DNA of 64,000 nt, from contig OZ242340.1 in assembly GCA_965208525.1 (NCBI GenBank), positions 2,711,737-2,775,736 of the forward strand, given 5' to 3'. Source of the stretch: Pseudomonadales bacterium. Lineage in GTDB: Bacteria > Pseudomonadota > Gammaproteobacteria > Pseudomonadales > Azotimanducaceae. A program made the position numbers and the translations under genes. The notes under the pieces are model-generated. The model saw nothing but the letters and a program-made list of their open reading frames with translations, was not told where the DNA came from and did not search any database. Positions 6,953 to 56,439 of the stretch are shown in pieces (position 1 is the stretch's first letter; every line of letters starts with the position of its first letter).

Positions 6953-6976
6953 CTTTCGGTTGAGGTGGCGGGGTTT

Positions 6977-8086: not shown

Positions 8087-8186
8087 GCCGGGTGCTGTTC
8101 CTAGCCTTCAGTGTGTGGAGCATTGTGCCCCAAGGAGCTTGCGCGCGTGTCCGCGTCGAGTCGAGGGCGCGTGGCAGAATGCCGGG

Positions 8187-13661: not shown

Positions 13662-13696
13662 AATGGAGACTTCCTCTTCCACGTAGAGCCCCGCAT

Positions 13697-19035: not shown

Positions 19036-19156
19036 CCCCTGTCGATGGAACCGCACGGTAGCCGGCACGTGGGCGATGTTCAAACGGGTGGGCCGGAGAC
19101 TTGGCGCGTGGGCTGTTGGCGGTGGGATATGGTGGCGCGTTGTTAGGGGGCAACGT

Positions 19157-27722: not shown

Positions 27723-28751
27723 TTGCGAATCGGCTTGATGGGGCTTGGACATGTGGGGCGCCAGATCTACGGCTTGGCCCTGGGCCAGCCCGACTGCGAG
27801 GTGGTGGCGGTTTCGGACATCGGCCAGCCGGGAATCCTCCACCACCTGCTGGCGAAGACGCTGCCGAAGGGCACGTCGGTACGTCTTGTCGGGAACTACC
27901 TCGAAGGCAAGGTCGATGGCAATGCGGACCCGGTTGCCCAGACCCGCCTGATGGCGGCAGAACGGCCGGAGGAGATCCCCTGGGACCTGCTTGGTGTCGA
28001 CCTCGTGATCGACGCCACGGGCCGCTTCCGCTCCGCCGAGGAACTCGCGCCCCATCTAGACAACGGCGCTCGCCGGGTTTTGGTCTCCAGCCTCCCGGAG
28101 GGCGACGTGGATCGGGTGGTGCTGAGTGGCGTGAACGATGGCGACGCGAAGAGTGCGGATCGCATCGTCTCTGCCGGCTCCGCGTCCACCACTGCGCTCG
28201 CGCTTGCTCTCAAGGTACTGGTGGACGAGCGCCCCATCGTCCATGCCACGATGACATCGGTGCATGCCTACACCGGCGACATGAGCCTGCAGGACCATGC
28301 GGCGAGCGACTACCGACGCAGTCGCTCCGGAGCGCGCAACATCATCCCCAACGACACGCTTGCCCCGGCTTGGGTGGAGCGCGCCCTACCCGCCGTGCGC
28401 GGCAGGTTAAGCGGATTCGCGCTGAACGTGCCGGTGGGCGAGGGCTCCCTGATGGATCTCACGGTGGCCTATCGGGAGCCCGCGCCGGAGCGGGATGTCG
28501 TCAACGGCCTCTTTGCCGCCGCGGCCCAGAGAGACCCGCGCCGCCTCGCCGTCACGGACGATCCCGTCGTCTCGTCGGATGTTCTCGGCAGCGCTGAGTC
28601 GATCTTGGTGGACCTGCAAGGCACGCTCCGTTCGGGCGGCCGGCTGGTGAAGGTGCTCGGCTGGCACGAGAGCCTGGGCCATGCCCGCAGCATCCTGGAC
28701 TTGGCTCGCCTTTACGCCGGGCTCGACTCGGCTGCGGCGGCTTCGGGGTAG
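27723..28751 (+). CDS. GAPDH-like paralogue lacking the catalytic cysteine (SNASCTTN is replaced by SAGSASTT)
   Basis: Rossmann motif 'MRIGLMGLGHVGRQIY' and 'TSVHAYTGDMSLQD' are conserved. The active-site segment reads 'IVSAGSASTTALAL'. TTG start. Confidence 0.75.
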   Translation: MRIGLMGLGHVGRQIYGLALGQPDCEVVAVSDIGQPGILHHLLAKTLPKGTSVRLVGNYLEGKVDGNADPVAQTRLMAAERPEEIPWDLLGVDLVIDATGRFRSAEELAPHLDNGARRVLVSSLPEGDVDRVVLSGVNDGDAKSADRIVSAGSASTTALALALKVLVDERPIVHATMTSVHAYTGDMSLQDHAASDYRRSRSGARNIIPNDTLAPAWVERALPAVRGRLSGFALNVPVGEGSLMDLTVAYREPAPERDVVNGLFAAAAQRDPRRLAVTDDPVVSSDVLGSAESILVDLQGTLRSGGRLVKVLGWHESLGHARSILDLARLYAGLDSAAAASG

Positions 28752-28763
28752 GGGAGGGCAGTC

Positions 28764-29765
28764 GTGCGAGTGGCCATCAACGGTTTTGGGCGCATCGGTC
28801 GGGCCGTGTTCCGCATCGCCGAGCGGCAAAGCGATGTCGAGGTGGTAGCGATCAACGATCTCTTCGACCACGACATGCTGGCTTACTTGCTGACCTACGA
28901 CACCGTGATGGGGCGCTTCGACGGCGGCGTGGAAATCACGGACGGCGAACTGGTGACGCCGCACGGCCGCGCCCGCATGGTGAGCGAAGCCGATCCGTTG
29001 CGCCTGCCTTGGGGCGAGTTGGAGGTGGATGCGGTGGTGGAATCCACCGGCGTCTTCCGCAAGCGCGAGCAGATCGCAAGGCATCTCGATGCGGGTGCCC
29101 GCCGCGTCCTGCTTACCGTGCCGGCAGGCGACCCCATCGACTACACGGTGGTGCTTGGCGTCAACGACGAAGGCTTGCTGCCCGAACATCGTCTGGTCTC
29201 CAACGCGAGCTGCACCACGAACTGTCTCGCCCCCGTGGCGCGGGTGCTCCACGACGCCTTCGGCATTCGCGAAGGCGTCATCAACACGGTGCACGCCTAC
29301 ACCAACGACCAGAGCCTCGCCGACGTGCCGCATTCGGACTGGCGACGCAGCCGAGCGGCGGCGGAGAACATCATCCCCACCTCCACGGGCGCGGCGCGTG
29401 CCGTGGGCGAAGTGCTGCCGGAACTCAAGGGCAAGCTCGACGGCATCGCCTCCCGCGTGCCGGTGCCGGACGGCTCGGTGGTGGACCTGTTCGCCGAACT
29501 CGAAACGGAAACCAGCATGGACGAGATCCACGACGCCGTGCGAGCCGCAGCCGATTCACCCCGAATGCAAGGCGTGCTGTCGTTCACGGACGAACCCGTG
29601 GTGTCCTCCGACGTCATCGGCAATCCCCACTCCTCCATCTACGACGCCTCCTTCACCCAGGTGAGCGAAGGCCGCTTCCTCAAGGCGCTTGCCTGGTACG
29701 ACAACGAATGGGGCTACTCCAACCGCGTCTGCGACGTGCTGCGCCTGATGGCGAATTTCGACTAA
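28764..29765 (+). CDS. gapA: Glyceraldehyde-3-phosphate dehydrogenase (type I)
   Basis: 'MRVAINGFGRIGRAVF', 'SNASCTTNCLAP', 'TVHAYTNDQ' and 'WYDNEWGYS' are all canonical. Confidence 0.93.
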   Translation: MRVAINGFGRIGRAVFRIAERQSDVEVVAINDLFDHDMLAYLLTYDTVMGRFDGGVEITDGELVTPHGRARMVSEADPLRLPWGELEVDAVVESTGVFRKREQIARHLDAGARRVLLTVPAGDPIDYTVVLGVNDEGLLPEHRLVSNASCTTNCLAPVARVLHDAFGIREGVINTVHAYTNDQSLADVPHSDWRRSRAAAENIIPTSTGAARAVGEVLPELKGKLDGIASRVPVPDGSVVDLFAELETETSMDEIHDAVRAAADSPRMQGVLSFTDEPVVSSDVIGNPHSSIYDASFTQVSEGRFLKALAWYDNEWGYSNRVCDVLRLMANFD

Positions 29766-35848: not shown

Positions 35849-36676
35849 ATGAAGATAGGCGTCTCGCTCCCCATTCGAGAACTCAAGGACGACATCGGCG
35901 CGTTGGTGGCATTCGCGCAAGCGGCTGACGAGCTTGGCTATTCCCACCTACGGGTGCCGGATCAGGTGCTGCGCCCGAACAGCGGGCATCTGCACGAGCC
36001 GCTGATCGCCTTGGCCTATATCGCTGCGGCAACGAAGAACATTGAGCTCTGCCCTTCGGTGATCGTGGCGCCGGCGCGGCAGACGGTGCTGCTAGCCAAA
36101 CAGCTCGCAACGCTGGATGCCATGAGCGGCGGGCGGGTGCGGCTTGGCATTGGCGTCGGCGGAAGCGCGCCGGAGTACGAGGCTCTCGGCGAGGATTTCC
36201 ACACGCGCGGCCGGCGCTGTGAAGAGCAGATCGACCTCCTGCGCCGTCTGTGGACGGAAGAGACGGTGGATTTCGAGGGACGCTGGGACGCGGTGCATGG
36301 CGCGGGCCTCGATCCGCTCCCCGTCCAGAGGCCCATTCCCATCTGGATCGGTGCCGCCGGCGTGCCTGTGCCACGCATCCTGCGCCGCATGGGCCGGCAA
36401 GCGGACGGTTGGTTCGTGCTTTGTTCGCCGGAACAGTTTGATGACGTGAAGGCGGGGATCGACGCCGCTGCGGTGGATGCGGGCCGAGACCCAAGCGAAG
36501 TCGGCACGGAAGCTGGCGTCGCGGTGGTGGGTGCGCGCGAGGCGGAGTGGAAGGACCGCGTTCAGGGTTGGCAAGCGAAAGGCGTGGGCCGCATCTGCCT
36601 AAGGACGCTAGGCGGTGGCCTGGACGCCGACGGCCACATCGCCAAGCTGAAAGAGGCCTGGCAAGAAAAGCCATAG
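35849..36676 (+). CDS. LLM-class (luciferase-like) flavin/F420-dependent oxidoreductase
   Basis: 'MKIGVSLPIRELKDDIGALVAFAQAADELGYSHLRVPDQ' is the typical LLM N-terminus; also 'RVRLGIGVGGSAPEYEALG'. Confidence 0.75.
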   Translation: MKIGVSLPIRELKDDIGALVAFAQAADELGYSHLRVPDQVLRPNSGHLHEPLIALAYIAAATKNIELCPSVIVAPARQTVLLAKQLATLDAMSGGRVRLGIGVGGSAPEYEALGEDFHTRGRRCEEQIDLLRRLWTEETVDFEGRWDAVHGAGLDPLPVQRPIPIWIGAAGVPVPRILRRMGRQADGWFVLCSPEQFDDVKAGIDAAAVDAGRDPSEVGTEAGVAVVGAREAEWKDRVQGWQAKGVGRICLRTLGGGLDADGHIAKLKEAWQEKP

Positions 36677-36805
36677 CCCCGGCGACCATGGCTGGCGCCT
36701 AGACGCTGCCTGCCGAGGATGTTGAGGACGCCTGTTCGGTGCGGGTGATGGCGTGAAGGGCCGGCGCGCTGAAGCGGTGCGGATTGAGGGAAGGGAAGGG
36801 GCAAG

Positions 36806-38236
36806 ATGAAGCTGTTGGTTGCGAACCGTGGGGAGATAGCGATCCGCGTGATGCGTGCGGCGGCGGAGCTGGGGATTTCTACGGTTGCGATTGCGCCGAG
36901 GGACGACGCCGGGTCGCTGCACACGGGCAAGGCGGACGAGTTCGTGACGCTTGAGGGGGCGGGCGCGTCGGCCTACCTCGACATCGGGCAGGTGGTGGGG
37001 GCGGCGCGGGAGACGGGCTGCGACGCGGTGCATCCGGGCTACGGCTTCCTGTCGGAGAACGCGGAGCTGGCGCGGGCGTGCTCCGAGGCGGGGCTGACGT
37101 TCGTGGGGCCGCGGGAGGAGACGCTGCGGCTGTTCGGCGACAAGGCGCGCGCCCGGTCGGCGGCGTCGGCGGCGGGGGTGCCGGTGATCCGTGGCATCGA
37201 CCACGCGGTGTCGCTGGACGAGGCGGAGGCGTTCTTCGCGAGCCTGGGCGCTGGCAGCGCGATGATGCTGAAGGCGGTGGGCGGCGGCGGCGGTCGGGGC
37301 TCGCGCATGGTGGAGCGTGCGGAGGAGGTTGCGGAGGCGTTCGAGCGCTGCCGCGCGGAGGCGGAGGCGAGCTTCGGCAACGGCGAGCTGTACGTGGAGG
37401 AGTTCATGCGCCGGGCGCGGCACGTGGAGGTGCAGGTGCTGGGCGACGGCAGCGGCGCGGCCCAGCATCTCGGCGAGCGGGAGTGCAGCGTGCAGCGGCG
37501 TTTCCAGAAGATCGTCGAGGTGGCGCCGGCGCCGGGTCTTGCCGAGGGGGTGCGGGAGGCGGTGATCGAGGCGGCGGTTCGGTTCGCCTCGGGCGTGGAC
37601 TACCTGAGCGCCGGCACGTTCGAGTTTCTGGTGGACGTTTCGGCGGACGCCTCGGGGGGCGGGTTCGCGTTCATCGAGACGAACGCGCGGCTGCAGGTGG
37701 AGCACACGGTGACGGAGGAGGTCACCGGGGTCGACGTCGTGGCCTCGCAGCTCCGGCTGGCGCAGGGCGCGACGATTTCCGACCTGGGGCTGGACGCGCC
37801 GCCTGCCCTGCGGGGCTACGCGATCCAGTCGCGGGTGTGCATGGAGTCGGTTCGCGAAGACGGTTCCATCGTTCCGACCGGCGGGGTGCTGACGGCGTAC
37901 GAGGCGCCGAGCGGCCCGGGTGTGCGCACGGACGGCTTCGGCTACGGCGGCTACGAGACGAGCCTGAACTACGACCCGCTGCTGGCGAAGGTGATCGCGC
38001 ACTCGCCGTCGCCGGACTTCGGCGACGCCGTCGCCCGCTCGCTGCGGGCGCTGGCGGAGTTCCGGGTCGAGGGGGTGGAGACGAACATCGCCTTCCTCGA
38101 GAGCATCCTGCGCCACCCGGACTTCGCCGCCGCCGAGGTGCACACCCGCTTCGTCGACGAGAACATGGCCAGCCTCGCCGCCGCCGAGCAAGGCGCACGC
38201 TTCGTCACCCCGCCCGGATTCGAGCCGCAGGCGGCA
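36806..38236 (+). repeat. Direct repeat unit A (1.43 kb; identical bar 1 mismatch seen to 40296-41726)
   Basis: Compared by eye across the region. Overlapping spurious ORFs 37078..38340 vs 40568..41830 and 37722..38198 vs 41212..41688 are identical or differ by 1 aa. One substitution was seen (NYDP/NYDS). Confidence 0.9.
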
Positions 38237-40273
38237 GACGGATTCGCCGGTGCCAGAGTCGAGGATGCCCGCGACCCCCTTGCACTTTTCCTGCACGACA
38301 CCCGCGTCAAGTCCGAACAGGACGACGAGGACGAAGCTGAAAGCGGCCCGGTCGTCGTGCCGGCCCCGGTTCCCGGCGAGGTGCGCGCCGTGCATGTCCT
38401 CGCCGGAGACGAGGTGCTGACGGGCCAACCGCTCGCAACCATTCACTCGCTGGAGATCGACCACATCGTTCGCGCTGACGAGGGCGGTGCCGTGGAAACC
38501 GTCGCCGTGGACGCCGGCAATGTCGTCCGCGCCGGCGACTCCTTGCTGCAAATCGTCAAGTCCGACATGGCCGGCCGTTGGGCCGAACCTGCTGCGGAGG
38601 CAGACTTCGACACCCGCCGCTCCGACCTGGCCCTCGTGGACCAGCGCCGCACCTACATCGAAGACGACTTCCGCGCCGAACGCATCGGTCGACGCCACGC
38701 CAAGGAGCAGCGCAGCCCGCGCGAGAACATCGAACACCTCATGGACGGCACCTTCCGCGAGTACGGTCCCCTCGTCACCGCGGCAAGCTGGCAGAAGCAG
38801 GAATGGCTGCGGGAGACGACCCAGGCGGATGGCCTCGTCATGGGCATCGGCAGCATCAACGGCGATCTCTTCGATGCCGACGCCTCCCGCGCGGTGGTGG
38901 TTCACTACGACTACATGGTGGTGGCGGGCACCCAGGGCGGGCGCGGCCACTACAAGCAGGATCGCATCTACGAACTGGCCGGACGCTTCCGGTTGCCCCT
39001 GATCCTCTTTGCCGAGGGCGGCGGCGGTCGACCCGGCATCAGCGGCGGCGAACGGGCAGAAGCCGTGGACATCGCCATCGAGGCGGGGCTGCGCAAGCTT
39101 GGCGAGAAGGCGCCGCCCGGTTCCCGCGCCAGCGCCGTGGACGTGGCCGGTCGCGGCGGCGGGGGCGTGCCGGTGGACTCCTACACCTTCACCAAGCTCT
39201 GCGAGCTGAGCGGCCTGGTGCCCTTGGTGGGCGTCAACTCCGGGCGCTGCTTCGCCGGCAACACGGTGATGCTGGCGTCCTGCGATGTCATCATCGCGGC
39301 GGAGAACTCCACCATTGGCCTTGGTGGCCCTGCCATGATCGAAGGCGGGGGCCTCGGCATCTACACGCCGGAAGAAGTGGGTCCCATGTCCTTCCAGGTG
39401 CCAAACGGTGTCGTGGACATCCTCGTCAAGGACGACGAGGCGGCCATCGAGACGGCGAAAAAATACCTTTCCTACTTCCAGGGCGCGGTGGATAGCTGGG
39501 AGACGCCGGACCAGCGCCGCCTCCGCGCGATCATTCCGGAAGACCGCAGCGCGCTCTACGACATGCGCGAGCTCATCGCCACTTTGGCGGACGAAGACTC
39601 CATCCTCGAAATCCGCGAAGCCTTCGGCGTCGGGATCATCACCGCCTTCATCCGCATCGAAGGCGAGCCGATGGGCCTCATCGCCAATAACCCCGCGCAC
39701 CTATCTGGCGCCATCGACAGCGATGCCGCCGACAAGGCGGCGCGCTTCCTGCAACTCTGCGACACCTTCGACATCCCGGTGCTGTCGCTGATGGACTGTC
39801 CCGGCCTCATGCCGGGGCCGGAGTACGAGCAGGCAGCACTGCTTCGCCACTCAGGCCGCATGTTCGTCACCGGCGCCAACATGACCACGCCCATGTTCGG
39901 CGTCGTGGTGCGCAAGGCCTATGGAATGGGCGTGCGAGCGATGTGCGGCGGCAGCTCGCTGGAACCGTTCTTCACCGTCGCCTGGCCCACGGCAGAGTTC
40001 GCCGACATGACCATCGACGGCAGAGTCAATCTCATGTACGGCGAGGAACTGGCCGCGATTGAGGATGCAGCGGAACGAGAAGCGGTGCACCAACGCCTGA
40101 TGGATGCCCACGTCGATCGAGTGCGCGCGGTGAACGCGGGCGGCACCAACTACGGCATCGACGACGTCATCGACCCGGCCGACACCCGAGCGTGGATCGC
40201 GCAGGGGCTTAGGAGCGTGCCGAAACCCCCGCCGCGGGAGGAAAAGAAGCGACCCAATGTGGACACGTGGTAG
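36806..40273 (+). CDS. Single-chain biotin-dependent acyl-CoA carboxylase paralogue 1 (BC - degenerate BCCP - carboxyltransferase); BCCP lacks the biotin-acceptor lysine
   Basis: ATP-grasp biotin carboxylase (aa 1-450), a biotinyl-like domain with 'ATIHSLEIDHIV' instead of AMKM, and a PccB/AccD-like CT domain ('VVVHYDYMVVAGTQGG', '...RKAYGMGVRAM'). 1155 aa. Confidence 0.85.
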   Translation: MKLLVANRGEIAIRVMRAAAELGISTVAIAPRDDAGSLHTGKADEFVTLEGAGASAYLDIGQVVGAARETGCDAVHPGYGFLSENAELARACSEAGLTFVGPREETLRLFGDKARARSAASAAGVPVIRGIDHAVSLDEAEAFFASLGAGSAMMLKAVGGGGGRGSRMVERAEEVAEAFERCRAEAEASFGNGELYVEEFMRRARHVEVQVLGDGSGAAQHLGERECSVQRRFQKIVEVAPAPGLAEGVREAVIEAAVRFASGVDYLSAGTFEFLVDVSADASGGGFAFIETNARLQVEHTVTEEVTGVDVVASQLRLAQGATISDLGLDAPPALRGYAIQSRVCMESVREDGSIVPTGGVLTAYEAPSGPGVRTDGFGYGGYETSLNYDPLLAKVIAHSPSPDFGDAVARSLRALAEFRVEGVETNIAFLESILRHPDFAAAEVHTRFVDENMASLAAAEQGARFVTPPGFEPQAADGFAGARVEDARDPLALFLHDTRVKSEQDDEDEAESGPVVVPAPVPGEVRAVHVLAGDEVLTGQPLATIHSLEIDHIVRADEGGAVETVAVDAGNVVRAGDSLLQIVKSDMAGRWAEPAAEADFDTRRSDLALVDQRRTYIEDDFRAERIGRRHAKEQRSPRENIEHLMDGTFREYGPLVTAASWQKQEWLRETTQADGLVMGIGSINGDLFDADASRAVVVHYDYMVVAGTQGGRGHYKQDRIYELAGRFRLPLILFAEGGGGRPGISGGERAEAVDIAIEAGLRKLGEKAPPGSRASAVDVAGRGGGGVPVDSYTFTKLCELSGLVPLVGVNSGRCFAGNTVMLASCDVIIAAENSTIGLGGPAMIEGGGLGIYTPEEVGPMSFQVPNGVVDILVKDDEAAIETAKKYLSYFQGAVDSWETPDQRRLRAIIPEDRSALYDMRELIATLADEDSILEIREAFGVGIITAFIRIEGEPMGLIANNPAHLSGAIDSDAADKAARFLQLCDTFDIPVLSLMDCPGLMPGPEYEQAALLRHSGRMFVTGANMTTPMFGVVVRKAYGMGVRAMCGGSSLEPFFTVAWPTAEFADMTIDGRVNLMYGEELAAIEDAAEREAVHQRLMDAHVDRVRAVNAGGTNYGIDDVIDPADTRAWIAQGLRSVPKPPPREEKKRPNVDTW

Positions 40274-40295
40274 GGAAGCAGGGGGAGAGGCAAAG

Positions 40296-41726
40296 ATGAA
40301 GCTGTTGGTTGCGAACCGTGGGGAGATAGCGATCCGCGTGATGCGTGCGGCGGCGGAGCTGGGGATTTCTACGGTTGCGATTGCGCCGAGGGACGACGCC
40401 GGGTCGCTGCACACGGGCAAGGCGGACGAGTTCGTGACGCTTGAGGGGGCGGGCGCGTCGGCCTACCTCGACATCGGGCAGGTGGTGGGGGCGGCGCGGG
40501 AGACGGGCTGCGACGCGGTGCATCCGGGCTACGGCTTCCTGTCGGAGAACGCGGAGCTGGCGCGGGCGTGCTCCGAGGCGGGGCTGACGTTCGTGGGGCC
40601 GCGGGAGGAGACGCTGCGGCTGTTCGGCGACAAGGCGCGCGCCCGGTCGGCGGCGTCGGCGGCGGGGGTGCCGGTGATCCGTGGCATCGACCACGCGGTG
40701 TCGCTGGACGAGGCGGAGGCGTTCTTCGCGAGCCTGGGCGCTGGCAGCGCGATGATGCTGAAGGCGGTGGGCGGCGGCGGCGGTCGGGGCTCGCGCATGG
40801 TGGAGCGTGCGGAGGAGGTTGCGGAGGCGTTCGAGCGCTGCCGCGCGGAGGCGGAGGCGAGCTTCGGCAACGGCGAGCTGTACGTGGAGGAGTTCATGCG
40901 CCGGGCGCGGCACGTGGAGGTGCAGGTGCTGGGCGACGGCAGCGGCGCGGCCCAGCATCTCGGCGAGCGGGAGTGCAGCGTGCAGCGGCGTTTCCAGAAG
41001 ATCGTCGAGGTGGCGCCGGCGCCGGGTCTTGCCGAGGGGGTGCGGGAGGCGGTGATCGAGGCGGCGGTTCGGTTCGCCTCGGGCGTGGACTACCTGAGCG
41101 CCGGCACGTTCGAGTTTCTGGTGGACGTTTCGGCGGACGCCTCGGGGGGCGGGTTCGCGTTCATCGAGACGAACGCGCGGCTGCAGGTGGAGCACACGGT
41201 GACGGAGGAGGTCACCGGGGTCGACGTCGTGGCCTCGCAGCTCCGGCTGGCGCAGGGCGCGACGATTTCCGACCTGGGGCTGGACGCGCCGCCTGCCCTG
41301 CGGGGCTACGCGATCCAGTCGCGGGTGTGCATGGAGTCGGTTCGCGAAGACGGTTCCATCGTTCCGACCGGCGGGGTGCTGACGGCGTACGAGGCGCCGA
41401 GCGGCCCGGGTGTGCGCACGGACGGCTTCGGCTACGGCGGCTACGAGACGAGCCTGAACTACGACTCGCTGCTGGCGAAGGTGATCGCGCACTCGCCGTC
41501 GCCGGACTTCGGCGACGCCGTCGCCCGCTCGCTGCGGGCGCTGGCGGAGTTCCGGGTCGAGGGGGTGGAGACGAACATCGCCTTCCTCGAGAGCATCCTG
41601 CGCCACCCGGACTTCGCCGCCGCCGAGGTGCACACCCGCTTCGTCGACGAGAACATGGCCAGCCTCGCCGCCGCCGAGCAAGGCGCACGCTTCGTCACCC
41701 CGCCCGGATTCGAGCCGCAGGCGGCG
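40296..41726 (+). repeat. Direct repeat unit B of the 1.43-kb BC-domain repeat
   Basis: See unit A. Confidence 0.9.
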
Positions 41727-43517
41727 GCAGCGCAGCAGGCCGAGCAGGCGGTGGGGCCAGAGGGGTCCGTGGGCCTGGTTGCCCCCATGCAAGGAACCAT
41801 CGTCGAGATTGGCGTTGCCATTGGCGATGAGGTGCGCGTTGGTCAAGCCGTGGCCGTCGTTGAGGCAATGAAGCTGCAGCACGACATCCGGGCGGACCGC
41901 AACGGTGTTGTCTGCGCCGTCTCCATGGCGGAAGGCGACGTGGTGCGCGAGGGCTTTCCCATCGTCTTCCTGCACGAGTCCGATGTGGAAGGCGGCGCCC
42001 TCGAGGGCGATGCAGGAATGGACCTCGATCTCCTCCGGGGCGACATGCAGGAGGTCAACGAACTCATCGACCAAACCCTCGATGCCGCCAAGGCAGAAGC
42101 GGTGGCTGGGCTGCGCGAGAGCAACCGGCGCACTCCTAGGGAGAATCTCGACGATTTCCTGGACGAAGGCTCCTTCCGCGAGTTCGGTCCCCCAGCGGCC
42201 GGCTCCGCCGCCGGCGGCACCATCATGGGCTTCGGCAGCGTCAATGCCGACCTCGTCGGAGACGAGCGCAGCCGCGTGGCGGTGGTACACAGCAACTACC
42301 CAACCGCCGCCTACACCCACGGTCACTATCGTCAGGAGCAGATTCACGAGATGGCCAGGGACTGGCGCGTCCCTGTGGTGCTCTTCTCCGAAGGGGAGGG
42401 TGGCCCGCACGGCAACGTCGGCGGCGTCGGCATGGACGCCAGCGTCTTCACCGATTTCGCGAGGCTGTCGGGGCTGGTGCCGCTCATCGGCGTCAACACC
42501 GGCGACTGCTTCGCCGGCAATGCCGCCCTCCTCGCCTGCTGCGACGTCATCATCGCCACGGAGGACTCCACCATCGGCATGAACGGCCCGGCCGTCGTCG
42601 AGTCGAGCGGATTGGGCACGCACAGTGCCGCGGAACTCGGCGGCATGTCGTTCCAGGCAGCCAACGGCAGCGTCGACATCGTGGTTGAGGACGACGCGGC
42701 CGCGGTGGCCACCGCCAAGCAATATCTCTCTTACTTTCAGGGGCCTGTGTCGGACTGGGAAGCGCCAGACCAGCGCCGGATGCGGCATGTCATCCCGGAA
42801 GACCGCGTGCGCGCCTACGACATGCGCGAAATCATCGAGACCTTGGCCGACGAGGGCTCGGTGCTGGAGATCCGCAAAGACTTCGGCATCGGCGTCATCA
42901 CCTCCTTCATCCGCGTGGAAGGTCAGCCGATGGGCGTCGTGGCCAACAACCCGGCGCACCTCGCCGGCGCCGTGGACAGCCCAGGGGCAGACAACGGCGC
43001 CCGCTTCTTCCAGCTCTGCGACGCCTTCGACATCCCGGTGGTGGTGTTCATGGACTGTCCGGGGATCATGGTGGGCCCAGACCACGAGCGCACGGCCCTG
43101 GTCCGCCACGCCGTGCGCCTGTTCAACATTGGCGCCAACTGCACGGCGCCCATGTTCGGCATCATGGTGCGCAAGGCATACGGGCTCGGCGTGCAAGCCA
43201 TGATCGGCGGCGCCTCCTCGGTACCGTTCCTGACGGTGGCATGGCCCACGGCAGAATTCGCTGGCATGAACATCGACGGTGCCGTCAAGCTCTCCGCCCG
43301 CCGCGAACTGGCCGCCATCGAAGATGCCGAAGAGCGCAAGGACGCCTACGAACGACGCGTCGCCCAAGGCTATGAGTCGGCAAGAGCCGTCAACTCCGGC
43401 GCAAGATACGTGATCGACCCAGCCGACACCCGCGCCTTCATCGCTCGAGGCATGAAGAGCCTCCCACCAACCCCACCCCGCACGAAGAAGAAGCGCCCCT
43501 ATGTTGACACGTGGTAA
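40296..43517 (+). CDS. Single-chain biotin-dependent acyl-CoA carboxylase paralogue 2 (BC-BCCP-CT) with intact biotinylation motif
   Basis: Same BC domain as paralogue 1. BCCP has 'VVEAMKLQHDI'. The CT domain is ~55-60% identical to paralogue 1 and lacks its ~40-aa insertion. Start taken at the MKLLVAN ATG with a purine-rich RBS, not the upstream 40257 ATG that overlaps paralogue 1. Confidence 0.85.
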   Translation: MKLLVANRGEIAIRVMRAAAELGISTVAIAPRDDAGSLHTGKADEFVTLEGAGASAYLDIGQVVGAARETGCDAVHPGYGFLSENAELARACSEAGLTFVGPREETLRLFGDKARARSAASAAGVPVIRGIDHAVSLDEAEAFFASLGAGSAMMLKAVGGGGGRGSRMVERAEEVAEAFERCRAEAEASFGNGELYVEEFMRRARHVEVQVLGDGSGAAQHLGERECSVQRRFQKIVEVAPAPGLAEGVREAVIEAAVRFASGVDYLSAGTFEFLVDVSADASGGGFAFIETNARLQVEHTVTEEVTGVDVVASQLRLAQGATISDLGLDAPPALRGYAIQSRVCMESVREDGSIVPTGGVLTAYEAPSGPGVRTDGFGYGGYETSLNYDSLLAKVIAHSPSPDFGDAVARSLRALAEFRVEGVETNIAFLESILRHPDFAAAEVHTRFVDENMASLAAAEQGARFVTPPGFEPQAAAAQQAEQAVGPEGSVGLVAPMQGTIVEIGVAIGDEVRVGQAVAVVEAMKLQHDIRADRNGVVCAVSMAEGDVVREGFPIVFLHESDVEGGALEGDAGMDLDLLRGDMQEVNELIDQTLDAAKAEAVAGLRESNRRTPRENLDDFLDEGSFREFGPPAAGSAAGGTIMGFGSVNADLVGDERSRVAVVHSNYPTAAYTHGHYRQEQIHEMARDWRVPVVLFSEGEGGPHGNVGGVGMDASVFTDFARLSGLVPLIGVNTGDCFAGNAALLACCDVIIATEDSTIGMNGPAVVESSGLGTHSAAELGGMSFQAANGSVDIVVEDDAAAVATAKQYLSYFQGPVSDWEAPDQRRMRHVIPEDRVRAYDMREIIETLADEGSVLEIRKDFGIGVITSFIRVEGQPMGVVANNPAHLAGAVDSPGADNGARFFQLCDAFDIPVVVFMDCPGIMVGPDHERTALVRHAVRLFNIGANCTAPMFGIMVRKAYGLGVQAMIGGASSVPFLTVAWPTAEFAGMNIDGAVKLSARRELAAIEDAEERKDAYERRVAQGYESARAVNSGARYVIDPADTRAFIARGMKSLPPTPPRTKKKRPYVDTW

Positions 43518-43856: not shown

Positions 43857-44996
43857 ATGAGTGAGGAAGCCGCGCTGGCGGGCATTCGGGTGGTGGATGC
43901 CGCCGGGAGCATCGCCACGGCCTATTGCGGCAAGCTGTTTGCGGATCATGGCGCGGCTGTGGTCAATGCCGAGCCCCCCGAAGGCTTCGCCACGCGGCGG
44001 GAAGAACCGTTTCTGCCCGGCGCCCTGGCTCCGGAAAACAGCGCCCTCCACGCTTGGCTCTCCACCAACAAGGCGAGCGCAGTGGTCGAGTCGGTCGGCG
44101 ACATCCGCGACTTGGCGCGGGGGGCGCAGGTGGTGCTTGACGACGGGCGTTTCGATTGCGAGCACTTCTCGGCGCTCGCGCCCAACGTCGTGGTTTCTAC
44201 GGTGACCTGGTTCGGACGCACCGGGCCATATGCGGATTATCAAGGCACGGATGGCGTGGTGCAGTCGCTCATCGGCATGGTGCGCGGCATCGGTCTCGAG
44301 GAGGGCCCGCCCATTCTTCCCGCTGGCTGTCAGGCGCAGATCGTCGGCGGTCTCGCCGCCTACATCGGCACCCTCGGCCAGGTGATCGCCCGCGAGATCG
44401 GCAATGCCCGAGGCCCAGTCCGGCTCGACACGAGCATCTTCGAGGCCAATCTCTGCTTCACGGAGGTCGGTGGCGTGGGCGGCCACCGCAGCGGTCGCCG
44501 CGTCCGACGCATGGGCGTGAACCGCTACCCGCCCACCTATCCGCTCGGCATCTATCCCTGCCGTGATGGCTGGCTCGGCGTCACCGCGCTGACGCCATCG
44601 CAGTGGAAGAGCTTCTGTGCCTTGCTCGACATGCAGGAGTTTGCCGACGTGCCGCAATACCAGAGCGCGATCGGCCGCTTGCAGGATGCGGAGATGCTCG
44701 ACCCGCTCATCCACGAGCGGGTGCGGGAGCAGAGCGCGACGGAGCTCTTCAACCGCGGGCAGGGCGCGCGCATCCCGCTGGCGTTGGTGCCGACGATGGA
44801 GCAACTGTTCACGGTGGACCAGTATGTCGCCCGACGGGCGTTCGATGAGGTGCGGCCGCCGGGGCAGGAGGGCTTCGTGGCTCCGGTAACGCCGTTCCGC
44901 CTGTTCCGTACCCCTGCCACTCGCGGCGGCGACGTGGCCCCCCTCGGGTCGATGCCTCCGACGCCTGTCGAACCACCTCGGAGCGTGCGCGCATGA
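43857..44996 (+). CDS. Family III CoA-transferase (CaiB/BaiF family)
   Basis: 'GIRVVDAAGSIATAYCGKLFADHGAAVV' is a family-III N-terminus, at ~380 aa. Confidence 0.8.
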   Translation: MSEEAALAGIRVVDAAGSIATAYCGKLFADHGAAVVNAEPPEGFATRREEPFLPGALAPENSALHAWLSTNKASAVVESVGDIRDLARGAQVVLDDGRFDCEHFSALAPNVVVSTVTWFGRTGPYADYQGTDGVVQSLIGMVRGIGLEEGPPILPAGCQAQIVGGLAAYIGTLGQVIAREIGNARGPVRLDTSIFEANLCFTEVGGVGGHRSGRRVRRMGVNRYPPTYPLGIYPCRDGWLGVTALTPSQWKSFCALLDMQEFADVPQYQSAIGRLQDAEMLDPLIHERVREQSATELFNRGQGARIPLALVPTMEQLFTVDQYVARRAFDEVRPPGQEGFVAPVTPFRLFRTPATRGGDVAPLGSMPPTPVEPPRSVRA

Positions 44997-46216
44997 GCCG
45001 CCCCGGCCTGCTCGAAGGCGTGCGCGTCGTGGATCTCTCGATGGGCTGGGCCGGCCCCTTGGCGGCGCGGCATCTCGCCGACATGGGCGCTGATGTCATC
45101 AAGGTGGAAGGTTGCGTCCGCTTCGACTGGTGGCGTGGCTGGGAGGCCACCCAGGAGTGGATCGATGAGGGTGGCGCCGAGATGTCGCCGGCGTTCAACA
45201 TGGTGAACCGCAACAAGCGCGACCTGACGCTGGACCTCTCAACTTCGGAAGGGGCGGACCTGCTGTTGCGCTTGGTGGCCATCTCCGACGTCGTGGTGGA
45301 GAACTACTCCGCCGGCGTGCTGCCGAAGCTTGGCCTCGACTACCCCGTGCTGGCGAAGGCCAACCCCGAAGTCGTGATGATCTCGATGCCCGCTTTCGGC
45401 AGCAACGGCCCATGGCAAGGCTATCGAGCCTACGGTTCAACGGTCGAGCAGGCATCCGGCTTGCCGCATCAGTCCGGCGAGGAGTCCATGCCGCCCACCA
45501 TGACTCACGTCGCGCTTGGCGATTCGGTGGGTGGCCTCAACGGCGCGGCGGCGCTGCTCACGGCACTCCGGGCCCGGCGCAGAACCGGCAAGGGCCAGCA
45601 CCTCGACCTGTCGCAGTCGGAATGCCTGTTTCCGCTCGGCATCAAAGGCATCCTGACGCAGTCTGTCACCGGCTCGCCGCCGCAGCGACTCGGAAATCGC
45701 TCCCTCGAACACGCGCCGCACGGGGTCTATCCCTGCGCCGGCGACGACGAGTGGATCGTCATCCAGGTTCGCTCGGAAGCGGAGTGGAAGGCGTTCGAGG
45801 CGGCGAGTGGCATTGGCGGATTTGGCGATGCTGCGGATCGGCTGGCACGGCGGGAGGAACTCGACGACGCCGTGCGAGCTTTCACCTCGACGCAGGTTGT
45901 CGAGCTCTTGATGCCAGAGTTGCAGGAAGCGGGCGTCCCGGCGGCACGCTTGGCCGGGGGGCTGGAACTCACCACGGACCCGCACCTGGCGGCGCGGGGC
46001 TTTTGGAAGATGATGCAGCGCGACTATGTCGGCGAGCTGCCGCACCCGGCGCCGCCCTATCGCGTTGGCGAAGCGCCGTTCGACATCGACCGTCCGGCGC
46101 CGACCCTCGGCCAACACAACGTTGAGGTGCTGTCGGAAGTGCTGGGCCTCGCGCCCGACGAGATCGCGGCGTTGGCGGAGAAGGGCGTCATCGGCACCAA
46201 GCCGCGACTGCCATGA
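44993..46216 (+). CDS. Family III CoA-transferase (CaiB/BaiF family)
   Basis: 'GVRVVDLSMGWAGPLAARHLADMGADVIKVE'. 4-bp overlap with the upstream gene (translational coupling). Confidence 0.85.
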   Translation: MSRPGLLEGVRVVDLSMGWAGPLAARHLADMGADVIKVEGCVRFDWWRGWEATQEWIDEGGAEMSPAFNMVNRNKRDLTLDLSTSEGADLLLRLVAISDVVVENYSAGVLPKLGLDYPVLAKANPEVVMISMPAFGSNGPWQGYRAYGSTVEQASGLPHQSGEESMPPTMTHVALGDSVGGLNGAAALLTALRARRRTGKGQHLDLSQSECLFPLGIKGILTQSVTGSPPQRLGNRSLEHAPHGVYPCAGDDEWIVIQVRSEAEWKAFEAASGIGGFGDAADRLARREELDDAVRAFTSTQVVELLMPELQEAGVPAARLAGGLELTTDPHLAARGFWKMMQRDYVGELPHPAPPYRVGEAPFDIDRPAPTLGQHNVEVLSEVLGLAPDEIAALAEKGVIGTKPRLP

Positions 46217-48597
46217 CGGCGCCGCCGCTCACCGGCACACGCGTCGTCGATGCCACCACACGCTGGGGCGAAATGGCGGGACGCATCCTCGCGGAGCTTG
46301 GTGCCGACGTCATCAAGATCGAGCCGGCCGCTGGGTGTGATTCCCGCCGCGTGGGGCCATTCCACGAGGGAGAGTCGCTGTACTGGGCGGCGATGGGCGC
46401 CGGCAAGCACAGCGTGGTTGCGGACGACCCGGAGCCGTATCTCTCGGACGCGGATGTATTCATCGAGTCGGGCTTCCGCGGGGCGCTGAATGAGCGCTTT
46501 CCGCGCTTGATCCATGCCTGCGTGACGCCGTTTGGCCTCGGTGGCCCGTTGGCGGATGCGCCAGCCGCCGAGGTCACCGTCGAAGCCGCGGGGGGCCTCG
46601 TCAACCTGCAAGGCAACGGCGACCGACCGCCGCTGCCCATGGGCGCAATGCCGCAGGCTGCGTTCCATGCCGGCGCGCAGGCGGCGGCGGACATCGTGGT
46701 GGCGCTCAACGCGCGGGAAGGCTCGGGGCTGGGGCAACGGCTGGATGTTTCCGCGCAGGCATGCATCGTCTGGACTCTGATGAATGCCACCGGCTTTCCG
46801 CCGAACACCGGGCGCAACCCACCGGGCACCAGCGAGTTTCGTGGCCAGTTGCCGCCCTTGGTCGCACCGGGTCTCAAGCTGCCGAACATCGTGCGCTGCC
46901 GCGACGGCCATGCCCAGCTTCGCTTGCAGATGCCGGTGATCGGCGAGCGCACCTTCCATGCGCTACTGCGTTGGGCGGAGGAAAGCGGGCTCGACGTGCC
47001 CGACGCGTTGCGCGGACGAGACATGACCGGCTGGCTGGCGGCGCTGGCAGCCGGCGAGGTGAAAGCGGAAGACGTGGGCATCGCGGCGGAACGTGTCGTG
47101 GATGTCTTGGCGCTGCACACGAAGCGCGAGATCCAGTCGTTCTCGGCGAAGCACGGTCTCACCCTTGCCGCCATCTACACGGTCGCCGATCTCGCCACCG
47201 ATCCGCAGCTCGAAGACCGTGACTACTGGGTGCATTGTGACGGGCGGCGCTACGCAGGTCCGTTCGCCCGGCTGTCCCGAACGCCGCTGTCGCGTGCCCG
47301 CCACGCCCCGGCGATCGGCGAGTCCATGGCGAGCACGCGAACTGCGACCGATGTGCAGGACAAGACGCCCGCCGATCAGGCCAACCTGGACGCGCGCCGG
47401 CAGGCACCTTCTTCGTCGCGGCGTGTTTCGTCGGCTTTCGAGGGGCTGCGCGTGGCCGACTTCAGTTGGGTGGGTGTCGGTCCCATGATCGGCAAGGCGC
47501 TGGCGGATCATGGCGCGACGGTGGTGCGCATCGAGTCCTCGAGCCGGCTCGACCTCCTGCGCACGTCGGCACCCTTCAAGGACGGCAAGCGCCACCCCGA
47601 CCGGGCGCAGTTCATGGCCAACTTCAACACCTCCAAGCGCGGCATCACGCTGGACCTCAAGAATCCGGAGGGCCAACGGGTCGCCCGGCGCATGGCGGAT
47701 TGGGCAGACGTGGTGCTCGAGAGCTTCTCGCCGGGCACGATGGCTCGCTTTGGCCTCGACTGGGACGCGCTCTCGAGCGAGCGCGACGACCTCATCATGC
47801 TGTCCACCTGCATGCGAGGCCAGACGGGGAGGGAGCGAACCTACTCCGGTTTCGGCGGCCAGGGCGCAGCCATTGCGGGGCTCTTTGGGCTGGTCGGCTG
47901 GCAAGACCGTCCGCCTTCCGGGCCGTGGGGCGCCTACACGGACTTCATCACCCCTCGCTTCGCCACCGCTACCCTCGGCGCCGCGCTCCTGCACAGGCAG
48001 CGCACGGGCAAGGGGCAGTACATCGATGTCTCGCAGATCGAGTGCGGCATTCGCTTCCTCGAACCGTTGGTGCTCGAACACGCGGCCAACGGCAACGTCG
48101 CCACCCGATTGGGACAGGGCTCGCCACAGCTCGATCCACACGGCGTCTTCGCCTGTCGTGGCACCCATCGCTATGTCGCCGTGGGCGTGGAGACAGACGC
48201 CGAGCGCGAGGCGCTGGCGAGTGCCATCGGGCATGCTTGCGCAGATGCCAGCGCCGGTCTCGATGGGGCGTTAACGTCGTGGTGCGCGTCGCGCGATGCC
48301 TTCGCCGCCGCAGCCTGCTTGCGCGATCACGGCGTGCCGGCGCATGTCGTCGCTCGCCCTGCGGACCTCTACCACGACGAGCAGCTGGCGCACCGTCACT
48401 TCTTCGTGACGCTGAACCATCCTGTCATGGGTCCCACGCCCTACGACGGCCCGGCCACCATCTACTCCCGTACGCCGCCGCGCCTGCGGACGCCAGCGCC
48501 ATGTCTCGGCCAGCACAATCGCGAGGTGATGGGTGGGATGCTGGGCATCGACGGCGCCGAATACGAACGCCTGCGCGCGGCCGGCGCCTTCGGCTAG
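46213..48597 (+). CDS. Double-domain family III CoA-transferase (two CaiB-like modules fused)
   Basis: First module 'GTRVVDATTRWGEMAGRILAELGADVIKIE'. Second module begins 'FEGLRVADFSWVGVGPMIGKALADHGATVVRIE'. 794 aa. 4-bp overlap with the upstream gene. Confidence 0.8.
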   Translation: MTAPPLTGTRVVDATTRWGEMAGRILAELGADVIKIEPAAGCDSRRVGPFHEGESLYWAAMGAGKHSVVADDPEPYLSDADVFIESGFRGALNERFPRLIHACVTPFGLGGPLADAPAAEVTVEAAGGLVNLQGNGDRPPLPMGAMPQAAFHAGAQAAADIVVALNAREGSGLGQRLDVSAQACIVWTLMNATGFPPNTGRNPPGTSEFRGQLPPLVAPGLKLPNIVRCRDGHAQLRLQMPVIGERTFHALLRWAEESGLDVPDALRGRDMTGWLAALAAGEVKAEDVGIAAERVVDVLALHTKREIQSFSAKHGLTLAAIYTVADLATDPQLEDRDYWVHCDGRRYAGPFARLSRTPLSRARHAPAIGESMASTRTATDVQDKTPADQANLDARRQAPSSSRRVSSAFEGLRVADFSWVGVGPMIGKALADHGATVVRIESSSRLDLLRTSAPFKDGKRHPDRAQFMANFNTSKRGITLDLKNPEGQRVARRMADWADVVLESFSPGTMARFGLDWDALSSERDDLIMLSTCMRGQTGRERTYSGFGGQGAAIAGLFGLVGWQDRPPSGPWGAYTDFITPRFATATLGAALLHRQRTGKGQYIDVSQIECGIRFLEPLVLEHAANGNVATRLGQGSPQLDPHGVFACRGTHRYVAVGVETDAEREALASAIGHACADASAGLDGALTSWCASRDAFAAAACLRDHGVPAHVVARPADLYHDEQLAHRHFFVTLNHPVMGPTPYDGPATIYSRTPPRLRTPAPCLGQHNREVMGGMLGIDGAEYERLRAAGAFG

Positions 48598-48718
48598 GGG
48601 GCCTGCGAAGTTTCCGCGACGCAGTCCCCACAAAGCGACGTTTTCTGTCGCACCGCTTTTTCGCCGTGCGCCTGGTGTCGTACAATCGCGCAGATCGCAG
48701 TTATGTGACAGGTGGCCC

Positions 48719-49735
48719 ATGCGCAAGGCAGGCGACACGATCATGCGCTCGCTGACGATGCTGCAGGTGATTCCGGTGCAGCCCCGTTCCAAGACCACGC
48801 GGGAAATCGGCGAGGAACTGCTCGCGGTGGACCCCGACTACGAGGTGGACATCCGCTCGATCCAGCGCAGCCTCGAGAAACTCTCTGCCATCTTCCCAAT
48901 CAGCAGCGAGCGGGACGGTCGTGCCAACCGCTGGTTCTGGACTCAAAAGGACGCCATCACCCAAATCCCGGCGATGAGCCGGGAGACGGCCTTCGCGCTG
49001 AAGCTCGCGGGCGAGTACCTCAAGCCCATCATGCCGCCCTCCACCCTGCGTCTGATCGCCGGTCACCTGCGCGCCGCCGACGAGATGCTCAAGGGCGAGT
49101 CGAAGCTCGGCGCATGGGCGCGCAAGGCGCGCATCGTCGAACGGGGCATTGCCATGACACCGCCGAGCGTGCGTCAGGACGTGATCGAGGAGGTGTATCG
49201 GGCACTGCTCGACGACCAGCGCATCGAGGTCACATGCAGCGCCCCCGGGGAGCGGGCCACGCGACGGGTGTTGAATCCCCTTGGGGTCGTCTTCCGGGGC
49301 GGCATCATCCATCTGGTGGCCACAGAGGAAGGCGAGGAGGGCGAGGGCGAAGTGCAGCATTTCGTGCTGCATCGGCTGTCGAATCCCACCGTGCTGGCGG
49401 AGGCAGTGCAACGTCCGCGCGGGTTCAGCCTGTCGCGCCACCTCGACGAGACGGAGGAGTTCTCGTCTGAGGTGGGCGCCGGCAAGCTCAAGCTGCGAGC
49501 GGCGTTTCAGCCCGAGGCGTTCGGTCAGCTAGGCGACGCCAAGCTCGCGTCCGATCACCGCACAACCATGCGACGCGACGGCCGCATCCTCGTCGAGGCC
49601 ACGGTTGCCGACTCGGATGAGCTCCGCACTTGGCTCATGGGCTTCGGCGCAATGGTGGAAGTGCTGTCGCCAAAGCGCCTGCGCAACGAATTCACGGCGC
49701 ACGCCGAAGCCCTGCACGCGGCCTACGTCGGATAG
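48719..49735 (+). CDS. WYL-domain transcriptional regulator (HTH-WYL-WCX; YafY/PafBC/BrxR-type architecture)
   Basis: N-terminal wHTH '...TREIGEELLAVDPDYEVDIRSIQRSLEKLSAIFPI', a central WYL-like beta-region 'RRVLNPLGVVFRGGIIHLVA' and a C-terminal WCX-like '...ELRTWLMGFGAMVEVLSPKRLRNEF'. Alternative start at 48743. Confidence 0.7.
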   Translation: MRKAGDTIMRSLTMLQVIPVQPRSKTTREIGEELLAVDPDYEVDIRSIQRSLEKLSAIFPISSERDGRANRWFWTQKDAITQIPAMSRETAFALKLAGEYLKPIMPPSTLRLIAGHLRAADEMLKGESKLGAWARKARIVERGIAMTPPSVRQDVIEEVYRALLDDQRIEVTCSAPGERATRRVLNPLGVVFRGGIIHLVATEEGEEGEGEVQHFVLHRLSNPTVLAEAVQRPRGFSLSRHLDETEEFSSEVGAGKLKLRAAFQPEAFGQLGDAKLASDHRTTMRRDGRILVEATVADSDELRTWLMGFGAMVEVLSPKRLRNEFTAHAEALHAAYVG

Positions 49736-55929: not shown

Positions 55930-56439
55930 ATGCTGAGTCTCAAGATCAACGGCGAGGAGCGGAAGGTGGACGACGCCGATCCGTCCACGCCCCTGTTGTG
56001 GGTGCTGCGGGACGAACTCGGCCTTGTGGGGGCCAAGTTTGGCTGCGGCATCGCGCGCTGCGGTGCGTGCACGGTGCTGCTCGACGGCGCTCCGGTGCGG
56101 TCCTGTTCGGTGCCGGTGGCCGCCGCCGCGGAAGGCGAAGTAACCACCATCGAGGGCCTTGCCGACGAAAGCGACGAACTGACGCCCGTGCAGCAGGCGT
56201 GGGTCGATCTCGATGTCGCCCAGTGCGGCTATTGCCAGGCGGGGCAGATCATGGCCGCCACCGCGCTCCTGGCGCGCGATCCAGACCCTGACGATGCCGC
56301 CATCGATCAAGCCATGGCCGGCAACCTGTGCCGCTGTGGCACCTACACGCGCATTCGCGAGGCGGTCAAGGTCGCCGCTGGACGCGCTTGGGAGGCGCGC
56401 AAGGTCTCGCCGGCGGGTGACGGAGGAGACGCCGCATGA
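55930..56439 (+). CDS. iorA: [2Fe-2S]-binding small subunit of a molybdenum hydroxylase (IorA-like)
   Basis: '[16 protein letters not shown]' and '[11 protein letters not shown] ... CRCGTY' are the two [2Fe-2S] motifs. Confidence 0.9.

Follow-up and report, generated by a model that had tools for sequence, protein, structure and literature searches.

The question raised by this locus is what a single-chain biotin-dependent carboxylase without the lysine that should carry its biotin is doing directly beside a paralogue in which that lysine is kept. The two genes, named P1 and P2 in this study, are located in a stretch of 64,000 nucleotides from a Pseudomonadales bacterium (GenBank assembly GCA_965208525.1, contig OZ242340.1, positions 2,711,737 to 2,775,736 of the forward strand). 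The whole stretch is referred to as the window, and coordinates are those of the window unless another locus is named. An earlier note, made from the sequence alone, had claimed that the biotinyl domain of P1 has lost its acceptor lysine, and had suggested either a pseudo-carboxylase or regulatory/scaffolding subunit, or a chain that uses the BCCP domain (biotin carboxyl carrier protein) of P2 in trans. The comparisons reported here argue that P1 and P2 probably form an obligate hetero-oligomer, a biotin-dependent acyl-CoA carboxylase of the LCC type (single-chain long-chain acyl-CoA carboxylase) to which each gene contributes one kind of chain. They extend the earlier note by a family-wide loss of the lysine, a degeneracy of P2, and nearly identical DNA encoding the biotin carboxylase (BC) domains of the two genes.

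The biotin-acceptor position in P1 and its homologs

The genes and the parts that bear on the acceptor lysine are as follows.

36806..40273, + strand: P1, 1155 amino acids, identified from its open reading frame (ORF) and translation; single-chain carboxylase composed of BC, pseudo-BCCP, and carboxyltransferase (CT) domains, without a biotin-acceptor Lys
38351..38557, + strand: pseudo-BCCP of P1, residues 516-584; biotinyl fold without the acceptor Lys
38453..38455, + strand: codon GAG of Glu550, which takes the place of the biotinyl-Lys at the tip of the hairpin
40296..43517, + strand: P2, 1073 amino acids from MKLLVAN; single-chain carboxylase composed of BC, BCCP, and CT domains, the predicted sole biotin acceptor of the pair
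41769..41972, + strand: BCCP domain of P2, with a canonical EAMKLQHD hairpin; Pfam Biotin_lipoyl, 51.8 bits
41871..41873, + strand: codon AAG of Lys526 in P2, the predicted biotinylation site

P1 and P2 are arranged head to tail, with a spacer of 22 nt after the P1 stop codon that includes a GGAGAGG ribosome-binding site. The length of P2 was counted from MKLLVAN, while the mechanical start of its ORF is at 40257. The Pfam domains Biotin_carb_N, CPSase_L_D2, Biotin_carb_C, Biotin_lipoyl, and Carboxyl_trans were found in this order in both proteins, and both matched the LCC/4RCN family over their full length, in three stretches corresponding to the BC, BCCP/linker, and CT regions. In a phmmer search against the PDB, the top solved relative of P1 was LCC of M. 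avium paratuberculosis (4rcn, E=3e-266), followed by fragments of the Deinococcus single-chain carboxylase (5fif and 5h80, E=3e-139 and 3e-132). No NCBIfam model reached its cut-off for P1 or P2, as all matches were below it.

The replacement of the biotin-acceptor lysine by glutamate in P1, and the canonical hairpin motif in P2, were confirmed by three independent alignments. BLASTP placed HSLEIDHIVRAD of P1 opposite EAMKLQHDIRAD of P2, so that Glu550 of P1 faces Lys526 of P2, and phmmer aligned the same HSLEIDHIVRAD stretch to LEAMKMQHVL of 4rcn. In a MAFFT alignment of 183 sequences, the biotin column contained Lys in 55 of 55 canonical enzymes and in 22 of 22 P2-type proteins, but in none of the 106 P1-type proteins, which had Glu (88), Gly (17), or Asp (1). 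The nearest lysines of P1 are K502 and K585, 48 and 35 residues from Glu550, respectively, in agreement with the claim that no other lysine is nearby.

The earlier note had proposed a comparison of structures and of orthologs, and both supported its observation. The domain, in which the interval 38370-38570 named in the note is located, matched Biotin_lipoyl (PF00364) across residues 518-583 with a score of 31.9 bits. Residues 508-592 were modeled with AlphaFold2 from 34 family members; the model had a pLDDT of 86.7 and an all-beta fold, with Leu549-Glu550 forming a two-residue turn between two strands. Its best Foldseek matches were biotin carboxyl carrier domains (rmsd 0.6-1.1 A), and the same hairpin, with strands at 542-548 and 551-556, was present in a full-length AlphaFold2 model of P1. 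P1 thus has the flattened beta-barrel, or barrel-sandwich hybrid, of a biotinyl domain, while the (E/A)-M-K-(M/L) tip expected of an acceptor is found in P2 (EAMKL, with Lys526) and reads H-S-L-E-I in P1.

More than 100 full-length P1 orthologs were found. When the BCCP and CT part of P1 was used as a query, 117 homologs could be aligned from 120 close relatives, mostly of ~1150 amino acids; the biotin position was Glu in 98 of them, Gly in 15, Asp in one, and Lys in three. Among 84 distinct pseudo-carrier sequences of the Glu clade, the mean column conservation was 0.63, while Glu550, Leu549, and His553 were conserved in 100%, 98%, and 99% of the sequences, respectively; the corresponding mean for P2-type BCCP domains was 0.87. 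Judged from these alignments, the pseudo-carrier evolves fast but keeps its hairpin tip (L-E-[LI]-x-H) better than any other part, and the loss of the lysine is an ancient, family-wide trait rather than an error or a sign of gene decay.

In a related fused BC-BCCP protein, mutation of the biotinyl-Lys (K553A) abolishes biotinylation (PMC11077971). Because of this result, and since no lysine is located at or near the hairpin tip, P1 is predicted not to be biotinylatable at the usual site, which upholds the earlier claim that it cannot carry its own biotin.

Pairing of the genes and reciprocal decay of their domains

A Lys-less gene was never found alone where its surroundings could be read. At each of the 16 distinct Lys-less loci whose flanks could be read (the window, L001, L002, L003, L008, L010, L011, L092, L093, L095, L097, L099, L102, L107, L174, and L175, the last two reached from the P2 side), a P2-type gene with EAMKLQHD is directly adjacent. 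The near-duplicate loci L004/5, L009, L100/101, and L104 agreed with this pairing, and none of seven further P1-type contigs, which end too early to judge, contradicted it. In contrast, ~145 Lys-bearing relatives from genomes and metagenomes had no second such gene adjacent (Fisher p = 2e-22); the nearest of them, P0118 (L006) and P0102 (L090), are solitary genes. The order of the genes was P1 then P2 in Glu-type pairs, and P2 then P1 in Gly-type pairs.

The pair was found in metagenome-assembled genomes (MAGs) labelled Gammaproteobacteria and Chloroflexi, in which the wider neighborhoods differ. Nearly all relatives were metagenomic or from MAGs, among them TARA ocean samples and a Chloroflexi MAG of lake origin. 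One relative is an isolate, with a name that we take to follow the pattern of a published sponge-microbiome MAG series. Of the 80 loci from a scan of genome contigs, two were true P1-type, and the other 78 were used as canonical controls. As the P2 matches in a second protein search were mostly partial fragments, the full-length P2 sequences used were those encoded at the loci. Three other loci were rejected as not P1/P2-like. L012 and L116 encode ordinary separate BC or CT subunits, and the two carboxylases of L042 both bear the lysine and are 3.4 kb apart. The latter (5480-8815 and 12276-14756 of L042, in an uncultured alphaproteobacterial MAG) are ~40-48% identical to P2 and are not reciprocally degenerate.

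To count losses by domain, columns conserved in at least 90% of the 55 canonical enzymes were considered, and a column was counted as lost if it was kept by less than half of the paralogue family.

BC: 128 conserved columns, 4 lost in P1 and 3 lost in P2
BCCP: 13 conserved columns, 4 lost in P1 and 1 lost in P2
CT N-half: 89 conserved columns, 8 lost in P1 and 33 lost in P2
CT C-half: 110 conserved columns, 18 lost in P1 and 13 lost in P2

The losses in the CT N-half included its glycine loop, for which the following features were identified in the window.

39014..39037, + strand: Gly loop EGGGGRPG of the P1 CT N-half (oxyanion hole 1), intact
39038..39154, + strand: insertion of 39 amino acids in P1 (ISGGE...VDVAGR) immediately following the Gly loop, as is usual in the P1 family
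42390..42413, + strand: degenerate loop EGEGGPHG of the P2 CT N-half, with the oxyanion-hole-1 Gly changed to Glu and Arg to Pro

The EGGGGRPG loop of canonical and P1 sequences aligns to FYDSGGAR of the 12S transcarboxylase. The glycine pair of the N-half forms oxyanion hole 1, by which the enolate of the substrate is stabilized, and carboxybiotin is served by hole 2, which belongs to the C-half (bioRxiv 10.64898/2026.02.06.704326). In P2 the loop has become EGEGGPHG (G740E), and all P2-type proteins have EGEG.P.G or EGMG, while E737-G744 of P1 was invariant in an alignment of 78 orthologs. Other changes in the P2 CT N-half were from VVAGTQGGRGHYKQDR to PTAAYTHGHYRQEQ and from GPAMIEGGGLG to GPAVVESSGLG, with the AGTQG motif among the losses. 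In the CT C-half, RKAYGLGVQAM of P2 is identical to the canonical motif, while P1 usually has RKAYGMGVRAM, and radical changes restricted to P1 were observed at R916E, V1003P, R1079G, and Y1103V. A self-sufficient LCC chain combines a BC site, a biotinyl-Lys, and both CT oxyanion loops; neither P1 nor P2 retains this complete set.

Selection was estimated as dN/dS between the window and L001, the closest relative for which DNA was available.

BC: dN/dS 0.135 in P1 and 0.150 in P2
Pseudo-BCCP of P1 and BCCP of P2: dN/dS 0.38 and 0.030, respectively
CT N-half: dN/dS 0.006 in P1 and 0.085 in P2
CT C-half: dN/dS 0.064 in P1 and 0.035 in P2

The pseudo-BCCP had the highest value of any domain in the two proteins, which is relaxed yet below 1.

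The segment from the Gly loop to YTFT spans 47-67 amino acids in P1-type proteins, versus 26-31 in nearly all canonical and P2-type proteins. The insert after the loop is variable within the P1 family and was modeled with low AlphaFold2 confidence in the P1 monomer. It also occurs in the Lys-bearing P0102 (solitary) and P0136 (partial), and hence is not confined to Lys-less proteins. In the full-length monomer model, confidence was low precisely at those CT N-half loops from which inter-chain sites are built, and the model does not decide the question of the active sites.

The BC domains had a different history, to which the following features of the window belong.

36806..38185, + strand: BC domain of P1, residues 1-460; catalytic motifs all intact
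36802..38235, + strand: gene-conversion tract, copy 1; P1 BC domain and the start of the linker
40292..41725, + strand: gene-conversion tract, copy 2; P2 BC domain

In an ungapped comparison, the first 1430 nt of the P1 and P2 genes differed by a single mismatch (37976/41466, Pro391/Ser391). The direct repeats comprise 1434 nt; their identity sets in 4 nt ahead of the ATG and breaks off at codon 477. Outside this tract the two proteins are ~50-60% identical. Across genomes, the nucleotide identity within a pair was 0.53-1.00 in BC and 0.55-0.72 in the CT C-half, and in neighbor-joining trees the BC domains grouped by genome, while the CT halves grouped by paralogue and were deeply diverged. 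Because of these groupings and identity ranges, a repeated gene conversion restricted to BC is likely, with a very recent overwrite in the window. Homogenization during short-read polishing of a long-read assembly may be an alternative cause of the 99.9% BC identity.

The BC motif N-x-R-[LI]-Q-V-E-H (FIETNARLQVEHTVTE-type; residues N, R, Q, V, E, and H) showed no variation among 106 P1 sequences and 55 canonical ones, while in P2 the catalytic motif was damaged in nine lineages (Fisher p = 6e-11). R was replaced by W in L001, and by C in L003/L104, where the Gly loop is altered as well. QVE had become DDS in L010 and DAA in L011/L101, the latter with additional changes of E to G and K to E. 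L107 had a change of Q to E and the protein P0129 a deletion in its Gly loop, and the domain was grossly lost in L093, L174, and L175. The P2 BC was intact in all three pairs with a within-pair identity of at least 0.95 (the window, L002, and L092), as well as in the less similar pairs L008, L095, and L099. The BC domain of P2 thus appears to be dispensable, decaying in some lineages and at times being overwritten by the P1 copy; its intact state in the window would be explained by a recent overwrite of this kind.

The proposed two-chain enzyme and its alternatives

In CT enzymes of the PccB type, each active site is shared by two chains, one of which contributes its N-half and the other its C-half. 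Since these sites span two chains, and since the decay of P1 and P2 is reciprocal, the pair would possess one live kind of CT site, made of the P1 N-half and the P2 C-half, and one dead kind. In the proposed cycle, the BCCP of P2 would be biotinylated on Lys526 and act as the only carrier of the pair. The carrier would be carboxylated at a BC site, which could be that of P1 in all lineages and, in the window, also the intact one of P2. The carboxyl group would then be passed to the acyl-CoA at a CT site that combines oxyanion hole 1 from the P1 N-half with oxyanion hole 2 from the P2 C-half, while the reciprocal site of the P2 N-half and the P1 C-half is predicted to be dead. The Lys-less biotinyl domain of P1 may have been retained as a structural, docking, or assembly module. 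The monomer of LCC reportedly has domains that do not touch each other and are swapped, and one catalytic cycle is said to use four monomers. Such an arrangement would make a division of labor between chains easy, provided that P1 and P2 co-assemble.

The parent single-chain family is hexameric, with a homo-hexamer as its solved relative (PMC6491548, PMC4347857), and P1(3)P2(3) would be the simplest guess for the stoichiometry. A more specific version of the proposal can be formulated from this guess, which we put forward tentatively and consider rather less probable than not to hold in all its parts. According to this version, the pair is a P1(3)P2(3) hetero-hexamer that arose by duplication of a homo-hexameric single-chain ancestor, after which the four functions required per turnover were split, with BC and the CT N-half assigned to P1, and biotin-BCCP and the CT C-half assigned to P2. 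The Glu-tipped pseudo-carrier would occupy the dead CT site or the BC site as a dummy, the decaying BC domain of P2 would be periodically rebuilt by gene conversion from P1, and the pair would constitute a previously undescribed class of biotin enzyme. We infer the physical association, the stoichiometry, and the assignment of active sites from sequence, adjacency, selection, and domain fold. The suggestion in the earlier note that P1 uses the BCCP of P2 in trans within a hetero-oligomer is accordingly favored by the strict adjacency, the reciprocal decay, and the complementary selection.

Several points weigh against the two-chain proposal. The assignment of the live CT site depends on motifs whose positions were taken from an alignment to 12S and PccB. 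Since oxyanion holes work through backbone amides, a change from Gly to Glu need not abolish function, and the Gly of oxyanion hole 2 is kept in both chains. In addition, P1 of L174 and L175 has the canonical RKAYGLGVQAM, and the C-half of P1 does not appear clearly dead. The P2 BC is intact in the window, L002, L008, and L092, and both BC domains may work here.

The same observations may be read in other ways. P1 and P2 might form separate homo-oligomers, with the BCCP of P2 or the whole P2 complex serving P1 transiently in trans. This would accommodate both the co-occurrence of the genes and the absent lysine of P1, and the BCCP is known to travel far between active sites, by ~80 A in GCC (PMC4673880). 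However, a homo-oligomer of P2 would be left with degenerate CT N-halves only and hence without a good CT site, one of P1 would depend on a foreign carrier at every turnover, and the tight reciprocal constraint is more easily explained by mixed interfaces; separate assemblies are therefore considered unlikely. It is more improbable still that P1 is a non-catalytic, BADC-like regulatory or scaffolding paralogue that tunes a self-sufficient P2. Plant homologs of the biotinyl domain that lack the lysine do regulate acetyl-CoA carboxylase (bioRxiv 10.1101/634550; PMC12706156), and no domain of P1 or P2 evolves faster than the pseudo-BCCP. This explanation, as well as the pseudo-carboxylase or regulatory/scaffolding subunit of the earlier note, is contradicted by the BC residues and CT N-half loops of P1, which did not vary among 78-106 orthologs and are the most tightly constrained regions in either chain (dN/dS of 0.006 in the CT N-half). 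Nor does P2 appear self-sufficient, with 33 of 89 conserved CT N-half positions lost and its BC damaged in nine lineages.

An equally small chance is given to a P1 with a biotin-independent activity of its own, such as acyl-CoA decarboxylation by the CT or another ATP-grasp reaction, that is merely co-inherited with P2. Decarboxylase activity is known for domains of the CT family, and subunits of methylmalonyl-CoA and glutaconyl-CoA decarboxylases are among the sequence relatives; CoA-transferases and acyl-CoA dehydrogenases recur near the pair. Against such an activity, every BC residue for biotin carboxylation is retained, the biotinyl hairpin is conserved, the decay of P2 is complementary rather than independent, and the genes are always immediately adjacent though their wider context varies. 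Finally, the glutamate might result from a sequencing or assembly error, or P1 might be a decaying pseudogene, as the closest relatives of the window are MAGs and a near-identical repeat of 1.43 kb makes the locus hard to assemble. This was rejected as virtually impossible, since the substitution is family-wide (98 Glu of 117 homologs) and recurs in ~100 independent sequences from many assemblies, the frame is open over 1155 codons, and the dN/dS values of all domains lie well below 1.

Genomic context, known systems, and implications

Downstream of P2, the window encodes the following genes.

43857..48597, + strand: three family-III CoA-transferase genes of 379, 407, and 794 amino acids, the last a fused double enzyme; Pfam CoA_transf_3

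These offer a possible pathway context, and none of the three reached the cut-off of an NCBIfam equivalog, as all matches were below it. A double CoA-transferase of 760 amino acids also flanks the pair in L003-L005. Directly after the CoA-transferases, on the same strand, 48533-49735 encodes a WYL/WCX-domain protein that is likely a transcriptional regulator by its domains. Pairs of acyl-CoA dehydrogenases were observed near the carboxylase pair in L174 (9066-9995 and 1-1537), L001 (19928-22247), and L003 (14137-16555), and a PhyH gene (phytanoyl-CoA dioxygenase family) at one of these three loci. The dehydrogenases and PhyH give a weak hint of branched or unusual acyl-CoA catabolism, and the context of the pair as a whole hints at acyl-CoA catabolism.

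Upstream of P1, a block syntenic with L001 encodes a lactonase-like protein, two GAPDH paralogues, Band-7, SDR, and YdjM proteins, a hydrolase, and an F420-type LLM oxidoreductase. The tandem GAPDH paralogues (27723-28751 and 28764-29765) are the same pair as in L001, and Pfam matches the first of them much more weakly than the second. The F420-dependent LLM-class oxidoreductase (35849-36676), located just upstream of P1, matched TIGR03619 with 219 bits against a cut-off of 167. Beside the pair in L002, a radical-SAM/CofH_C gene of 816 amino acids (7342-9792) resembles an FbiC-like F0 synthase by its domains, and a luciferase-like gene is located near the pair in L008 (4927-6273). There could hence be a link to F420 in organisms labelled Gammaproteobacteria.

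Other catabolic genes in the window encode a hydantoinase/oxoprolinase A subunit (60764-62851), a molybdopterin-binding oxidoreductase subunit (56436-58667), and a TauD-family dioxygenase (22086-23285). Long ORFs of 633-1180 amino acids without a Pfam match were found at 273-3815, 11916-13817, and 18398-20338 / 18749-20689. The latter two, of 646 amino acids each, overlap on opposite strands, and at least one of them is probably an artefact of the high GC content (67% in the window).

Among known systems, LCC (4RCN) resembles P1 and P2 in its BC-BCCP-CT order, its single chain of ~1100 amino acids, and its CT motifs EGGGGRPG and RKxYGLG. Unlike the pair, it is encoded by one gene and forms a homo-hexamer with a biotinyl-Lys (LEAMKMQH) on every chain, while the pair consists of two diverged genes, in which P1 lacks the lysine and has the insertion of 39 amino acids, and P2 has a degenerate CT N-half and an apparently dispensable BC. 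The single-chain carboxylase of Deinococcus radiodurans (5fif for CT and 5h80 for BC) has the loop EGGGGRPGDT, which is canonical, as in P1. In E. coli AccD/AccA, the N-half-like and C-half-like CT modules are on two chains, with one kind of site per heterodimer interface. This is the arrangement proposed for the P1 N-half and the P2 C-half, except that AccD and AccA each have only one half, whereas P1 and P2 both keep both halves, one of which is apparently relaxed or degenerate in each.

The multi-subunit LCC of mycobacteria also contains two CT paralogues in one hexameric core, AccD4(2)AccD5(4) (PMC13012033; bioRxiv 10.64898/2026.02.06.704326), and its BCCP domains travel between BC and CT sites with the same two glycine oxyanion holes. 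For P1 and P2, two CT modules in one core, as in AccD4/AccD5, are suggested by the adjacency and the complementary conservation. In the mycobacterial enzyme, however, AccE tethers BC-BCCP (AccA3) to CT (AccD4/AccD5), which are polypeptides of their own, AccD4 and AccD5 differ in substrate range and both keep both oxyanion holes, and there is no Lys-less carrier. Plant BADC proteins are, like P1, BCCP homologs that cannot be biotinylated and that join a carboxylase complex (bioRxiv 10.1101/634550, PMC12706156). They are small, stand-alone negative regulators of heteromeric acetyl-CoA carboxylase, whereas the Lys-less domain of P1 is located inside a chain with a strongly conserved BC and CT N-half; P1 therefore shares with BADC the non-biotinylatable BCCP homolog, but not the absence of catalytic domains. 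Neither AccD4/AccD5 cores nor BADC combine the features of the P1/P2 pair, and no description of paired, reciprocally degenerate, Lys-less, or heteromeric single-chain carboxylases was found in the literature that was searched.

Automatic annotation names both proteins "carbamoyl-phosphate synthase large subunit" or "carboxyl transferase domain-containing protein", and the dependency between them is missed. Either gene expressed alone would probably yield an inactive protein. If the proposal is true, a natural single-chain LCC-type enzyme has been turned into an obligate two-gene heteromer by reciprocal domain loss. The pair would represent a clean, sequence-documented case of duplication followed by complementary degeneration, in which a carrier site, a catalytic loop, and the activity of a whole domain were lost, and in which recurrent gene conversion resets one decaying domain, the BC of P2. 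The P1/P2 family would thereby provide a natural experiment on the inter-chain contacts that are used in the LCC-type cycle.

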